From the IMG/VR virus record IMGVR_UViG_2684622670_000007, positions 1 through 5,383 of that record: a DNA stretch of 5,383 nucleotides. One strand, given 5' to 3'. Made by a program: the position numbers and the translations under genes. The notes beneath the pieces were generated by a model. The model ran no database searches and was not told where the DNA came from. It saw only the letters and a list, made by a program, of their open reading frames with translations. Shown here one piece after another: positions 1 to 4,701 of the stretch. Position 1 is the first letter of the stretch, and every line of letters starts with the position of its first letter. This DNA is from a virus. Taxonomy: Duplodnaviria > Heunggongvirae > Uroviricota > Caudoviricetes.

Positions 1-436
1 GTACCGGTTTAACCTCGTCACGGGGCTTTCTGATGGCTGAAAGACGCTTTACAAGTTCATCCATCGCCTGACTCGATGCGTCGATGGTTCCGCTTTGGAT
101 TGGTTCACGCATTTCATCCATGATTTCCAGCACCAGACGGCGGTGATAGTTATCCGCGACCATTCCGGCATATCCCTTCAGGTTTGCGGCACTCGGGCAG
201 TTTTTGCTGGTCATCAGGATTGACGTGAAATGCTCCTCTCCGCACGCCTCGGCAACCATCAGCGCGTCGATTAGGTTTCTGTTTCGCGCCTGCTTCCGGA
301 TAACCTCGAAGGCTTTCCGGTAGAGCGGAATTGAAAACGCTTCCGGCTCAAGCGTTGCCAGAACGTCACTGGCAGTTGGTGTTAATCCACCAATCAGCAG
401 GCCACCGATAACGCTCGCTTCGATATCCTGTTTCAT
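1..436 (-). CDS. Replicative DNA helicase, DnaB family (phage P22 gene 12-type), N-terminal ~145 codons only; gene continues past the left edge
   Basis: Manual minus-strand translation from ATG (revcomp 434-436) gives [17 protein letters not shown]...[18 protein letters not shown]..., matching the conserved DnaB N-terminal domain (E. coli DnaB ...EAEQSVLGGLML...NTPSAANISAYADIV...). The start overlaps the stop of the upstream O-like gene (ATGA), suggesting translational coupling. Not in the ORF track because it is truncated by the window edge. Confidence 0.7.
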
Positions 437-1380
437 GCAATCCCCCTGTCTGCAAACTTTCCTTCCCGTACTCCCGTTAACGAATCTTCCCTCAGCAGGT
501 AATCAAAATCTGCCGTCCAGCCCGTGTCGTTGTCTCCGAAGTAAAACGGCTTGGCCTGATGCACAAACGCCCTGACATACGCTCTGAAACCGTCCACGTT
601 TGGCGTTTTCAGTTGCGGGATAATTTTCTTCAGGCGGCGTTTGCGTTTCTCGTTGACCGCAACAGCGTGTGGAAGTCTGTCACCGACTTCGGTGTTGTAG
701 GCGTTCAGGAAGGATTCGTAGTCGATTCGTTCTGCCTTGCGACGTTCAGGTTTAACCTGCCAATCGCCTCCCCCATTGGGGGGTAGGGGGGTATTATTTA
801 TATTCTTGTTAATACCTTCTTGTTCATGATGTGCGGTTGTTTGTGCGGCTTCATGTGCGCTTTCATGTGCGGCATGTACTCTGAAAGCCGCGCCATTACT
901 GGCTTCGTCATGTGCGGCATCATGTGCGGTTGTTTGTGCGGCTTCATGTGCGGGTGAATCGTCCGTTTTTTGAGCATATTCATGGTAATTTGTGATGGTA
1001 ATCACACGACCTTTTTGCTTCTCTCCATCAATGGTGATCATCTCCTCTTTCACAAAAACCTGAAGCATCCGCTCAACCTGATCACGGCTTGCCGGCTTGC
1101 CATGCCTGTCGCATAACTGAAGACCTAAATCAGCTGCTGTCACAACCAGTTGACCGGGTTGCAGATGCCATTCATGACCTTTGAAATTCGCTTTGTATGG
1201 CTTTCTGGCGGCATTCAGGAGAAGGTTTTCCCACAGGGTGCGAAGATAAACATCTTTCGCCCATGACTGTTTCAGAATGCTCCGGTACAACGGAATGTAA
1301 CCAGTTTTCTGGTTCTCCATCCTGTTGCTCCTGCGCTCGTGTGCGGCGCTGAAATCGTAGATTTTTGCTGTATTGCTCAT
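433..1380 (-). CDS. Replication initiation protein, lambda O / P22 gp18-like (315 aa)
   Basis: N-terminus MSNTAKI... resembles lambda O (MTNTAKI...). Sits downstream of cII and upstream of the helicase, as in lambdoid replication modules. The central low-complexity linker ([17 protein letters not shown]...) is encoded by the iteron arrays. A Shine-Dalgarno-like AGGCAGGT precedes the ATG. Confidence 0.85.
790..953. repeat. Putative phage replication origin inside the O-like gene: two arrays of four 12-bp-spaced iterons (core TGTGCGG) plus a flanking AT-rich segment
   Basis: TGTGCGG cores (one TGTGCGC variant) start at 830, 842, 854, 866 and at 911, 923, 935, 947, giving an exact 12-bp period within each array. 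A 35-bp unit at 825-859 is repeated at 918-952 with 34/35 identity. The AT-rich stretch 790-824 lies immediately downstream in the O reading direction, the same iteron-then-AT-rich order as lambda ori. Confidence 0.6.
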
Positions 1381-1666: not shown

Positions 1667-1735
1667 GTTGGATGTTATTAAAATTCCATTTGTATTTGAT
1701 CAGAACGCTCGGTCTTGCACACCGGGCTTTTTTTA
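1667..1735 (+). ncRNA. OOP-like antisense RNA (promoter pO-like plus intrinsic terminator), antisense to the 3' end of cII
   Basis: Perfect -10 TATAAT at 1655-1660 with a weak -35. Plus-strand hairpin 1707-1713/1721-1727 (7 bp, one G-U) followed by T7 (1728-1734) lies inside the cII 3' coding region. The predicted ~68-nt transcript would overlap cII by ~57 nt, as lambda OOP does. Confidence 0.45.
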
Positions 1736-1977
1736 TTGGTGAGTCCATCAAGCGCATACTTAAAAGCCCTGCTAATCGGACTGATGTCTGATGCCATTCC
1801 AAAAGCACACAAGACCGAAGCAATAAATCTCCAGTCCGTTCTGCTTATCTTCGATTCATGACAGCCAATCATCTTTGCCAGACCGCGCTGGGTAAGCGTT
1901 GACAGGTTGATGAGTAAATCTGTTTCTGCGCGATCAACGTCGCGCTGTGATAGTTTGCTGTAACTTGTTTGTTCCAT
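1678..1977 (-). CDS. cII: cII-like transcriptional activator (99 aa)
   Basis: The translation aligns with lambda CII from recall: HTH region ...ESKISRTDW... and C-terminus ...LTNKKSPVCKTERSDQIQMEF versus lambda ...LTNKKRPAATERSEQIQMEF. Position downstream of cro and nutR is as expected. Confidence 0.85.
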   Translation of the reverse strand: MEQTSYSKLSQRDVDRAETDLLINLSTLTQRGLAKMIGCHESKISRTDWRFIASVLCAFGMASDISPISRAFKYALDGLTNKKSPVCKTERSDQIQMEF

Positions 1978-2074: not shown

Positions 2075-2299
2075 TTATGCTGCCTGATTCGGTTTTGGAA
2101 ACAGGTGTGGCAAATCGGGGCGAATTTCGTAAGCCTTGATCTGCCCTCCAGTGGCGTTAACGATGGCGGTAACTTTCTCTGGAGAGACCAACCCGCCTTT
2201 CAGCCATTTGTGTACTGCTGGCTGCGTTACACCACACTTGTCGGCAAGGCGCTTTTGGCTACCGACAATTTTCAAGGCTCGTTGAATTACTAAATTCAT
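2075..2299 (-). CDS. cro: Cro-like repressor, HTH_XRE family (74 aa from the preferred start; ORF track extends to 2320)
   Basis: HTH segment GSQKRLADKCGVTQPAVHKW. First gene downstream of predicted PR. The ATG at 2297-2299 is preceded by AGAGGT at 7-nt spacing, whereas the ATG at 2318-2320 has no SD and lies about 6 nt from the predicted transcription start. Confidence 0.75.
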   Translation of the reverse strand: MNLVIQRALKIVGSQKRLADKCGVTQPAVHKWLKGGLVSPEKVTAIVNATGGQIKAYEIRPDLPHLFPKPNQAA

Positions 2300-2410: not shown

Positions 2411-3118
2411 ATGAAAACATTCGCAGAAAGACTAAATGCAGCCATGAGCTCAGCAGGTGTATCGCAATCACAGCTTGCTGACATGGTTGGAATATCTCAG
2501 CCAGCCATACAGAAGATGTCATCCGGTAAAACAAACGGATCTCGCAAGATGGTTGAATTAGCCAATGCTTTAAAAGTACGCCCTGAATGGCTTAGCTCTG
2601 GTATTGGTGAAATGAGGGATGGTACACATGAAGAACCATCCAATGTCCGTGAATCATCTTTAAAAGCTGTGGTATGGGAAGATATTAAAAGAAACGATGA
2701 CGAGTTTGTCGCGTTGCCTCTTCTTAACGTTTCGCTTTCAGCTGGAAGCGGTAGCTGCGAGCTAGAGGAATCATCAGAGTTCTCTTTGGTTTTCAGAAAG
2801 TACTATCTGAAAAAGATGGGGGTATCTGAAAGATCAGCCAAGCTAGTTAGGGTTGTAGGGCAAAGCATGGAACCAACGCTTCACGACGGAGATGTTGTTG
2901 GTGTTAACACACAAGATACCACAATCAGAGATGGTAAAACCTACGCTATTTGCCAGTCTGATTTGTTACGAGTAAAAACATTAATCGCCACCCCTACATC
3001 GGTGATAATCAGATCAATAAATCGCGAAGAGTACCCAGATGAAGTAATGGATAGAGATGAATTTCATGAAACCGTAAGGATTATTGGCAGAGTATTCTGG
3101 TCGTCTCATAGTTGGTAA
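2411..3118 (+). CDS. cI: CI-like prophage repressor: N-terminal HTH_XRE domain plus C-terminal S24 (LexA-type) autopeptidase domain
   Basis: HTH QSQLADMVGISQPAIQKM; S24 motifs GQSMEP (Ser nucleophile) and RVKTL (Lys); candidate Ala-Gly cleavage site in LSAGSG. The ORF track begins at TTG 2381, but the ATG at 2411 (MKTFAERL...) fits the promoter geometry. Confidence 0.9.
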   Translation: MKTFAERLNAAMSSAGVSQSQLADMVGISQPAIQKMSSGKTNGSRKMVELANALKVRPEWLSSGIGEMRDGTHEEPSNVRESSLKAVVWEDIKRNDDEFVALPLLNVSLSAGSGSCELEESSEFSLVFRKYYLKKMGVSERSAKLVRVVGQSMEPTLHDGDVVGVNTQDTTIRDGKTYAICQSDLLRVKTLIATPTSVIIRSINREEYPDEVMDRDEFHETVRIIGRVFWSSHSW

Positions 3119-3158
3119 CCGATAATCAGAAGAAGACTTACGGAAGTGCGGAGGGATA

Positions 3159-3455
3159 ATGGAATTTCTGATAGTTTTTGTTGTTGTTTTGGTCATCATT
3201 CTTTTTGTTTTGCTAAGCATTAGCAAAAAGCTATCTCAAACGATTGAACATAGCTCTAATCGCGCAAAAGAAGAAGACCATCTAATTGATATAAAAGAGA
3301 TTCTCTCTGATATAAAAATCACATTAGATGAAATAAAATACACAACAGATCTAATTGAACAGTATAAAATACCAACCCCAAACGAGAGAAAAGCAATAGA
3401 TCAATATCGTATTGACTTAGAAATCGACGAAATGCTAAGCAAAAGAAAAGACTAA
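3159..3455 (+). CDS. Small membrane protein (98 aa): one N-terminal transmembrane helix then a charged, probably coiled-coil domain; sits in the position of lambda rexAB and is probably co-transcribed with cI
   Basis: Strong SD GGAGG (3150-3154) before the ATG. Hydrophobic residues 3-21 (FLIVFVVVLVIILFVLLSI) are followed by a K/E/D-rich region. Markedly AT-rich compared with the flanking phage genes. Lies 41 bp downstream of cI and is followed by an intrinsic terminator. Confidence 0.6.
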   Translation: MEFLIVFVVVLVIILFVLLSISKKLSQTIEHSSNRAKEEDHLIDIKEILSDIKITLDEIKYTTDLIEQYKIPTPNERKAIDQYRIDLEIDEMLSKRKD

Positions 3456-3460
3456 AAACA

Positions 3461-3490
3461 CCCGGCCTCAGCGCCGGGTTTTCTTTTCCT
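3461..3490 (+). terminator. Rho-independent terminator ending the cI operon; possibly bidirectional
   Basis: Stem CCCGGC (3461-3466) / GCCGGG (3473-3478), 6-nt loop, then TTTTCTTTTCC. An A-run upstream (3454-3458) gives a U-run for the opposite strand. Confidence 0.75.
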
Positions 3491-3608
3491 GCCGTCCCCC
3501 CCCCAATCAACCATCCTCATCATAGACAAGCATCAAGCCAAAGGTAGCACTTTCACCCCGCACGCAAGCCCTCAAACACCAATCAATCAGCAACATTTAC
3601 AAAAATAA

Positions 3609-3691
3609 AATACCTTTGTTATCCATCACCTATAACTTATTTACCATAAAATATAAACTAAGTTATTGACCACACCTATAACCTAAGTTAT
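3609..3691. promoter_or_regulatory. Left operator region: OL1 3678-3691 (ATAACctaaGTTAT, perfect), OL2 3653-3666 (one mismatch), weaker OL3-like site 3609-3622
   Basis: Same 14-bp ATAAC-N4-GTTAT family as the OR sites. OL1 and OL2 are 25 bp apart and overlap the predicted PL hexamers. Confidence 0.6.
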
Positions 3692-3694
3692 CTT
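3666..3694 (+). promoter_or_regulatory. PL-like promoter: -35 TTGACC (3666-3671), 17-bp spacer, -10 TATCTT (3689-3694)
   Basis: Sigma70-like hexamers overlapping OL2 and OL1, directed toward nutL and the N-like gene. Confidence 0.55.
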
Positions 3695-3740
3695 TAAGCC
3701 ATCAGCAGGACGCAGGAAGCCAAACGGAACAGATTGGCAG

Positions 3741-3779
3741 GCTCTTTAACATTGATGGAATGGGGATGATTCGTCCCCA
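3741..3779 (+). promoter_or_regulatory. nutL-like site: boxA GCTCTTTAACA (3741-3751) and boxB hairpin (3761-3779)
   Basis: boxA-like motif followed 9 nt later by a hairpin, TGGGGA-tgattcg-TCCCCA, that matches the nutR hairpin at 18 of 19 positions. Lies between PL and the N-like gene. Confidence 0.6.
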
Positions 3780-3933
3780 CCAAAGAGAGGTTGGCTTTGG
3801 GATTTGATGAATGTGCAGGTCGATGCACTAACGCTTAGCGGTGAGCACCTGCCTTTGGGGCAGGATGGGTAGCCGCAATCAGGAGATCGACACCTGACAT
3901 CAAATCACCAAAGTCAATCATCGGAGGTATCCA

Positions 3934-4140
3934 GTGAAAGCAAGAGAGATTCGCAAACTCGAACGCGCTCGTAAGCACAAAGAGGCGACAGCAAAACGTA
4001 AAAATATTGACCGTGTTTCAATGGTGGTTTCGCTAGCAGGAGCGAATAGGAAGAAGGTTGAATGTGGTTCGTGCTGCCTGCCAAACGTAGCTCTTTACGC
4101 GGCAGGCTACCGGAAATCAAAACAACTGACGGCGAGGTGA
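3934..4140 (+). CDS. N: N-like transcription antitermination protein (68 aa, GTG start)
   Basis: First gene downstream of PL and nutL. Arginine/lysine-rich N-terminus (MKAREIRKLERARKHKEATAKRK). The C-terminal part resembles N proteins of P22-type phages from recall (unverified). Strong SD GGAGG (3923-3927) 6 nt before the GTG. Confidence 0.7.
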   Translation: MKAREIRKLERARKHKEATAKRKNIDRVSMVVSLAGANRKKVECGSCCLPNVALYAAGYRKSKQLTAR

Positions 4141-4161
4141 CGATCCCCCGCCGTCGAGGAA

Positions 4162-4701
4162 CTAAATTAGCTCATCAGCTTTACCAGCAAAGCGCATATA
4201 ACACTCATAGAACCAGACGTCAGGTATAACAAATTTCTCTTTACCTGACGCGCTGTAAGTCACACCTGAGCGATGGAGAAGGCCTTTTCTCATAAGAGAT
4301 AAAGCGACCGGATCGCCGTGCTTAAGTACGATTTTGTTATTTGCCATAACAGCAAATGCTAAAACCTCTTTTTCCTGAATACTCAGAGAATTGAACAGGC
4401 GCTCAGTCTCCACAATTACTTTAGCCTCATCTCTCTTACTGAGATATTTTTTATATCTGTCTGAAGATGCCAGAAATATAAACTCCATCACCCTGTTCAG
4501 AACATAACTGATACACAAAAGCATTGCGTAATACATCCAGTGATCTGGAAGTATTTCGGGGTTCCTTATATCTACCCACTCTTTAATTGATGCTGGGGTG
4601 ATTATTATCAAGGCAATTAAAATAATAAGCATATGAATTAACTGTTGTAGCGTAAGACCACGCAGGAAGAAACGTAATAGTTCCTGCCACCAGTTACTCA
4701 T
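4162..4701 (-). CDS. Membrane protein (179 aa), putative superinfection exclusion protein B (SieB)-like
   Basis: Convergent with and abutting the N-like gene, the arrangement I recall for lambda sieB and N. N-terminal hydrophobic segment (LIHMLIILIALIIITP) and soluble C-terminal domain. GGAG-type SD before the ATG. Low GC. The assignment rests on position, size and topology only. Confidence 0.5.
   Translation of the reverse strand: MSNWWQELLRFFLRGLTLQQLIHMLIILIALIIITPASIKEWVDIRNPEILPDHWMYYAMLLCISYVLNRVMEFIFLASSDRYKKYLSKRDEAKVIVETERLFNSLSIQEKEVLAFAVMANNKIVLKHGDPVALSLMRKGLLHRSGVTYSASGKEKFVIPDVWFYECYMRFAGKADELI

Follow-up and report, generated by a model that had tools for sequence, protein, structure and literature searches.

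The interval 3491–3608 of the window, by which we mean the entire stretch of 5,383 nt analyzed here, is identified from its sequence as the spacer between the terminator T_IMM and the operator O_L of a lambdoid phage. It is the positional homologue of the T_IMM–O_L3 spacer of phage lambda (about 35,652–35,800), because it sits between a T_IMM identical to that of lambda and an O_L/P_L region. The transcript of this spacer on the repressor-sense strand resembles a rut site in composition, and comparison of mutually unalignable spacers suggests that this composition appears to be maintained across families. We therefore give close to an even chance to the reading that the T_IMM–O_L spacer would act as a Rho-loading fail-safe for read-through transcripts.

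The window corresponds to the entire draft contig BBVP01000045.1 of assembly GCA_001514785.1 and comprises a lambdoid immunity and replication region, in reversed orientation with respect to the usual lambda map. The following features were located:

1–435, minus strand: fragment of a DnaB-type helicase
433–1380, minus strand: O-type initiator
between the O-type initiator and cII, minus strand: small ORF
1678–1977, minus strand: cII
2075–2299, minus strand: cro, of the P22-Cro/YdaS type
about 2411–3118, plus strand: cI repressor (S24 peptidase)
3159–3455, plus strand: membrane-anchored ORF of 98 residues (phrog_18389, unknown function), last gene of the cI operon (ORF list and PHROG match)
3460–3487, plus strand: T_IMM homologue, intrinsic terminator of the immunity operon (terminator scan and lambda match)
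3488–3504, plus strand: GC-rich box just 3' of the T-tract, holding the C9 run (alignments)
3505–3590, plus strand: allele-specific C/A-rich, G-poor core, a candidate rut-like zone on T_IMM read-through transcripts (composition, unstructured RNA)
3591–3610: conserved A-rich block CAACATTTACAAAAATAAAA, not C-rich, at −110 to −91 from the P_L start
3609–3691: O_L operator array (pattern search)
3609–3622: O_L copy with 2 mismatches
3632–3645: weak O_L copy, read by eye and above the mismatch limit of the pattern search
3653–3666: O_L copy with 1 mismatch
3678–3691: perfect O_L copy, ATAACCTAAGTTAT
3666–3712, plus strand: P_L promoter and transcript start (promoter scan)
3934–4140, plus strand: short N-like protein
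4162–4701, minus strand: sieB

The terminator found by scanning both strands consists of a GC-rich stem of 7 bp (3460–3466/3473–3479) followed by the T-tract TTTTCTTTT at 3479–3487. Hairpin and T-tract are identical in 27 of 27 bases to T_IMM of lambda (35.8 kb, just downstream of rexB), described in bioRxiv 10.1101/2021.04.19.439022 as the immunity region's intrinsic terminator, and the same hairpin, annotated as tM, precedes the spacer of phage 933W. On the other side, the search for operator repeats of the form ATAAC-N4-GTTAT yielded 8 matches where 2.65 are expected, a number reached by none of 200 shuffles; O_R contributes three perfect copies, at 2336, 2361 and 2385. The P_L promoter has the layout of its lambda counterpart, with a −35 element TTGACC (3666–3671), a spacing of 17 nt, a −10 element TATCTT (3689–3694) and, 6 nt further on, the start at A3701; its transcript begins with ATCAGCAGGACG as does the P_L RNA of lambda, and the motif TCAGCAGGACG is common to the window, lambda, P22 and 933W. 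The original prediction had correctly placed the interval between the terminator of the cI operon and O_L, with the T_IMM match at 3460–3487, operators from 3609 onwards and a lambda-like P_L. The minus-strand scan likewise scores the T_IMM hairpin as a terminator, with the tail GTTTTTAGTC, and AAAAGAAAA (3441–3449) is the exact complement of the T-tract, the corresponding upstream flank in lambda being less A-rich; the T_IMM of this phage therefore looks bidirectional.

Among public sequences, the nearest relatives are Stx1a-converting prophages from E. coli O26:H11, that of strain H19 among them, which share 96.9% identity across 321 nt. Of 5,426 complete E. coli genomes, 118 contain the region, none of them identical to the window, and a pattern scan of the GTDB species-representative genomes gave no match. 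The site between cI and T_IMM behaves as a slot for variable cargo ("moron") genes, with a junction at 3459/3460 beyond which homology restarts at the first base of the T_IMM hairpin. Relatives matched in cI and O_L (loci L009–L013) hold other genes in this slot, namely a DUF3024 protein with an ORF of 173–177 residues, an SDH-family Clp-fold serine proteinase with a small ORF, or two small ORFs. Both nutL (3741–3778) and nutR (2030–2060) can be recognized, each on its own transcript, by a boxA-like sequence, GCTCTTTAA, and a boxB hairpin, GGGGATGATTCGTCCCC, that is identical in the two. The N-like protein, of only 68 residues and with an arginine-rich N-terminus, matches the Pfam entry N_peptide (PF25694), and its match to the PHROG "N-like antiterminator" covers only profile positions 105–157 of 176; it may be a short or truncated form. 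At the same position, genes of 90 and 120–130 residues or pseudogene fragments are annotated in relatives, and because these annotations differ the P_L-proximal genes can be described as mosaic. A strong terminator-like hairpin of 10 bp, 8 of them GC, lies on the minus strand 3' of sieB (4128–4155) and overlaps the N-like gene at its 3' end, which suggests a terminator of convergent transcription between sieB and the P_L operon. In the O-type gene, on the minus strand, GGGGGGTAGGGGGG with two G6 runs is found at 778–793, and tandem repeats of 12 nt resembling TCATGTGCGGCT (2.7 and 3.8 copies, 842–953) encode a His/Ala-rich repeated peptide and are probably the iterons of the origin.

Analysis of the base composition of the spacer (A43 C45 G12 T18 in 118 nt) bears out the C-rich, G-poor character originally described for it, and the run of nine C is indeed found at 3496–3504, where it forms the sole homopolymer of at least 8 bases in the window. 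The 80-nt stretch with the strongest excess of C over G in the whole contig is 3495–3574 (C35, G9). This skew is beyond chance, since an excess of C over G of at least 33 per 118 nt is reached by 0.033% of 3.0 million windows taken from both strands of 1.5 Mb of lambdoid prophage DNA, and anywhere at all in 8 of 2000 shuffles of the window. YC dimers are present at a density of 0.24, about twice the 0.11 of the window. The claim that the segment holds no ORF was likewise upheld: none of at least 30 residues lies within 3511–3693, a spurious antisense ORF (3319–3510) touches only the first 20 nt, and after the stop codon at 3453–3455 the plus strand offers neither an ATG or GTG nor an ORF of at least 30 residues until the N-like gene at 3934. 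The sense transcript of the spacer, about 110 nt with 38% C and 10% G, is predicted to be nearly devoid of structure (−4.7 kcal/mol over 126 nt), the core folding at −0.031 kcal/mol per nt where background windows average −0.206.

The textbook loading site of Rho is untranslated and unstructured RNA, rich in C and in YC dimers and poor in G. The spacer has a C-rich, G-poor RNA of about 80–110 nt with many YC dimers, which is largely unstructured and untranslated and closely follows both a stop codon and an intrinsic terminator. The back-up Rho-dependent terminator originally proposed is thus consistent with every sequence-level property examined, the case for it being one of composition and comparison. 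The Rfam 15 scan of the whole window (E ≤ 10) gave no real match; the one overlap, rnk_pseudo (19.5 bits against 55, E = 7.9), is at chance level and driven by the terminator hairpin. A relic of a gene or mobile element was considered and rejected, a distant blastn search against 50,697 phage records having matched only the same spacer in one Stx1a phage, and a minus-strand G-quadruplex was rejected by eye, some 50 nt separating the G runs. The core is flanked by a direct repeat of 8 nt, CCAATCAA (3503–3510 and 3579–3586), within an imperfect repeat of 18 nt with 78% identity; recombination that brought in this core may have left the repeat behind, or it may be a chance occurrence in sequence of low complexity.

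In order to compare the spacer with those of other phages, IMG/VR was scanned with a T_IMM pattern, which returned at least 120 loci; 117 of the listed loci had not been chosen for the window allele. Among these listed matches, 74 of 117 carry a spacer of the lambda/933W type, 9 the window type and 7 a third type (that of locus L062), 22 spacers are unclassified, and in 5 the operators follow T_IMM directly. Together with other fetched loci, the listed ones amount to about 18 spacer variants. No two of the cores from the window, lambda and L062 align better than composition-matched shuffles (z ≤ 1.2), whereas those of lambda, 933W and L077 align at z = 9–13. Between window and lambda, z is −0.7 and likeness is confined to the flanks, namely the post-terminator box, which reads GCCTCACGATCGCCCCC in lambda, and the A-rich block; by this alignment the window core is a distinct allele at the position homologous to that of lambda. 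As the same O_L type occurs with all three cores, these behave as interchangeable cassettes between conserved flanks.

Despite the lack of alignable sequence, all three core families are C-rich and G-poor on the repressor-sense strand (background tail fractions of 0.2%, 1.2% and 3.4%), and by RNA folding all three fall within the least-structured 5% of 90-nt background windows. The distance from the T-tract of T_IMM to the P_L start is 213–232 nt in 147 loci of several immunity types, among the matches listed and the fetched loci, and at 214 nt the window resembles most of its relatives. In the contigs L081, L101, L113, L149 and L158, which have no spacer, T_IMM abuts the operators and lies 101 nt from the P_L start motif; in P22 no more than 38 nt separate c2 from O_L3, and in HK022, a sparsely annotated record, no T_IMM-like hairpin was found in the 8 kb examined. 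Within lambda itself (32–41 kb, leftward-sense strand) the 80-nt window with the highest excess of C over G is precisely this spacer (35,660–35,739; C24, G4). As reference for a Rho terminator we used tR1 of lambda (annotated at 38,249–38,301), whose rutA/rutB window has C24 and G7 per 80 nt, so that the skew of the lambda spacer is at least equal to it. It took the place of the proven Rho terminator tR1 of H-19B, which was dropped because the cro–cII spacer of the window matches the Stx1 prophage of strain H19 for 44 nt (through boxA) and then diverges. Spacers of the lambda type contain a second C run, ATGCCCCCCTGCAAAAAATAAAT, just upstream of the A-rich block (about 35,690 in lambda). Its length is C5 in L066, C6 in lambda (L054) and C7 in L161 and L168, and because it differs between contigs, short slippage-prone C runs can be said to recur in these spacers.

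In the proposed model, the rare transcripts from P_RM or P_RE that escape T_IMM would contain a stretch of about 110 nt that is neither translated nor structured and is rich in C and poor in G. Rho would load on this RNA and free RNA polymerase within or just past O_L, stalling of the polymerase at repressor-bound operators, as potential roadblocks, probably aiding its release. Transcription in the lysogen would thereby be kept out of P_L, nutL, N and the downstream early-left genes, and there would be ample room for release before the N-like gene, since the operator roadblocks are followed by about 230 nt of untranslated leader. That meaningful amounts of read-through RNA are made, that Rho acts on them and that the composition has been kept for that reason is what we infer from these data.

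The proposal finds parallels in other prophages. A Rho-dependent terminator within the P_RM–racR unit of the rac prophage keeps the lethal kil gene silent (PMC4150792), and Rho is described as silencing toxic prophage genes and as able to reinforce weak intrinsic terminators (PMC12360218). Our search of the available literature found no paper describing an action of Rho at the T_IMM–O_L spacer. On the other hand, wild-type T_IMM of lambda was reported by Hayes and colleagues to block read-through into O_L and N even when pE-driven transcription was 30–100-fold higher, a minimal synthetic hairpin also being a powerful terminator in plasmids (PMC3640518). With a terminator reportedly so strong, the spacer may see little RNA, and a back-up could be under weak selection. 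Against a fail-safe it must also be held that, judged from the spacer-less T_IMM contigs (5 of 117 among the matches listed) and from P22, the spacer is dispensable in some phages.

The same arguments can be extended to the T_IMM–O_L spacer of the lambda family as a whole, including lambda and the Stx phages, as a loading zone for Rho selected for its composition, although we consider this wider claim rather doubtful. The sequence of the core would then be free to change, while the bias of C over G, the structure-free RNA and a length of at least 80 nt would be kept, and Rho would engage a polymerase that has escaped T_IMM before or while it meets repressor-bound O_L. Lysogenic and lytic transcription would then be insulated from each other by three layers (hairpin, Rho, roadblock). 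Since Rho binds poly-C very well, expansions from C9 to C12 would be tolerated or mildly favored within such a zone. Concerning the evidence from the three core families, these may go back to a very old common ancestor, in which case descent could account for part of the composition and length that they share.

The C tract itself has a more restricted history. In 38 relatives the nine bases that follow CCTGCCGT read TCACCACCC (25 loci), CCCCCACCC (12 loci) or CCCCCATCC (one locus), always 9 nt in length. Uninterrupted runs are found solely in the sublineage of the window, where six loci read 9 (the contig of the window and DRR017161), 10 (SRR25224797 and SRR25224795) and 12 (two ENA metagenome assemblies), and one further contig ends exactly at the tract. 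These lengths come from short-read and metagenome assemblies, in which homopolymer calls may err, each length being found in two samples. All indels of the set, over 1287 aligned columns, are confined to the C tract, no substitution separates the C10 from the C12 loci, and a single one separates the window from both. This pattern indicates replication slippage as the source of the length variation, at least as far as the assembled sequences can tell. The simplest history would involve two or three point substitutions, from TCACCACCC through CCCCCACCC to C9, and then slippage to C10 and C12. The slippage hotspot originally suspected, for which a comparison of tract length across relatives had been proposed, survives in altered form: the length does vary (C9, C10, C12), but only in a rare sublineage with an uninterrupted tract, the 38 interrupted relatives being constant at 9 nt, and C9 does not represent a conserved feature.

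An uninterrupted run of at least nine bases, with lengths of 9, 10 and 12 in near-identical relatives, is what a phase-variable switch turning a neighboring function on or off by tract length would display. We nevertheless regard such a switch as very improbable. Distances from the tract are 41 nt to the preceding stop codon, 9 nt to the preceding T-tract and 162 nt to the −35 element of P_L downstream. The tract is part of no ORF and no promoter-like site, nor is it placed between promoter hexamers; because it lies outside any ORF or promoter, a switching role is unsupported. Moreover, neither the 38 relatives nor any of the 118 complete E. coli genomes with the region show an uninterrupted run, and the longest C run in the post-terminator box of the 117 T_IMM contigs among the matches listed is 2–7 bases, never 8 or more. 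The sequence comparisons make C9 a recent, private by-product of one sublineage and no designed element, its slippage being most likely neutral; to a Rho-binding surface it would contribute at most poly-C.

Another explanation for the spacer as a whole would be that it is functionless filler, backbone left over between T_IMM and O_L and swapped by recombination at its conserved flanks, with skew and length either inherited or incidental and any action of Rho an unselected consequence of read-through RNA being untranslated. The exchange of cores among phages of the same immunity type fits this explanation, as do the contigs with no spacer, the short interval of P22 and the power attributed to T_IMM alone (PMC3640518). 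The conservation of the window allele is of little help here, since all its relatives are 95–99% identical and say little about selection. Neutral sequence, however, should drift towards a strand-symmetric composition, whereas three unalignable cores keep their bias of C over G and their minimal RNA structure, the length varies by no more than about 20 nt between immunity types, and the lambda spacer is the most skewed stretch of a 9-kb early region. For these reasons filler appears to us an unlikely account of the spacer, though one to be taken seriously.

A further explanation looks to the duplex, the whole spacer serving as upstream DNA for P_L and, via O_L–O_R looping, for P_RM, through UP-element contacts, bending or fixed spacing and with no role for the RNA. 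In lambda, an O_L-proximal UP element together with IHF stimulates P_L, and the same element activates P_RM through the O_L–O_R loop formed by CI (Giladi 1998 and Cui 2013, as relayed in PMC3708714 and PMC8053113). A block of the form CAAAAA(A)TAAA(T/A) is found at −100 to −112 from the P_L start in the window phage, in lambda, in 933W-type and in other immunity types, and at −95 in P22, and the T_IMM–P_L distance is constrained. By its position and type of sequence, the block at 3591–3610 is probably the counterpart of the distal UP element of lambda, as that element is presented in the citing papers. Such an architecture nevertheless fits only the last ~20 nt of the spacer. The C/A-rich core has no A-tracts, no IHF consensus (WATCARNNNNTTR with at most one mismatch gave no site in 3480–3700, and its count over the window is that of chance) and no sequence conservation between families, and nothing obvious in promoter architecture demands a fixed distance to a terminator. 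A role of duplex DNA also predicts no bias of C over G on one particular strand, which the unalignable cores share; this favors a role at the level of RNA and makes promoter architecture an improbable explanation for the spacer as a whole. A G/U-rich small RNA of the minus strand, starting near O_L and ending at the minus-strand face of the T_IMM hairpin, is scarcely credible. The hairpin does score as a terminator in that direction, but the minus strand showed no promoter-like site in 3100–4200, Rfam gave no match, and neither a conserved structure nor sequence conservation between the spacer families was seen.

If true, a Rho fail-safe would add a small and unrecognized layer to the best-studied of genetic switches. 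It would explain how lambda-type prophages, including those of Shiga-toxin phages, stop leakage of the repressor operon into the early-left operon, and repressor-bound O_L would be spared disturbance by transcription of the repressor operon. The idea is directly testable in lambda itself. Without a fail-safe, the C-rich spacer would be ordinary backbone of the lambda family and C9 a private, unstable allele rather than a regulatory device, and the 3' end of the interval would still be part of a conserved A-rich element upstream of P_L.

Comparison with known systems places the interval closest to the T_IMM–O_L3 spacer of lambda (NC_001416) and the tM–O_L spacer of 933W. Shared with both are the position in the immunity region, the terminator hairpin with its T-tract, a GC-rich post-terminator box with a C run, a C-rich and G-poor repressor-sense strand, the A-rich block about 100 nt 5' of the P_L start and a T_IMM–P_L distance of about 214–221 nt. 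On the other hand, the ~85 nt in the middle defy alignment, an AT-rich block CCAATTGTATTTATTGAAAAATAAATAG of the lambda type is missing from the window allele, the C content of the window allele is higher (45 per 120 nt, compared with about 36), and the post-terminator run is C5 in lambda and C9 in the window. The distal UP element of lambda, GCAAAAAATAAAT at −102, has the same type of sequence and the same distance to P_L as the block at 3591–3610. This likeness covers only the 3' end of the interval, and the lambda site is assigned through the citing papers and positional conservation; the block of the window has no adjoining IHF consensus, a fourth operator-like site being found there instead. 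With homopolymeric contingency tracts the C tract shares an uninterrupted poly-C run of at least 9 bases and length polymorphism among near-identical genomes, but it is associated with no reading frame, promoter spacer or known linked phenotype and is absent from almost all relatives.

Concerning Rho terminators, the rutA/rutB region of lambda tR1 likewise gives, after a stop codon, untranslated RNA with much C, little G and weak structure, and its skew per 80 nt (C24/G7) compares with C35/G9 in the window spacer. tR1 is experimentally proven, interleaved with boxA and boxB of nutR and overridden by N, whereas the spacer of the window, rut-like by its sequence only, follows an intrinsic terminator and has no nut site upstream on its transcript. 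The terminator trac, in the P_RM–racR unit of rac, follows the same logic, as Rho stops transcription of a repressor unit short of kil on the P_L side; there, however, Rho loads in the 5' untranslated leader and termination takes place inside racR, with a strong dependence on NusG and a weak rut site (PMC4150792).
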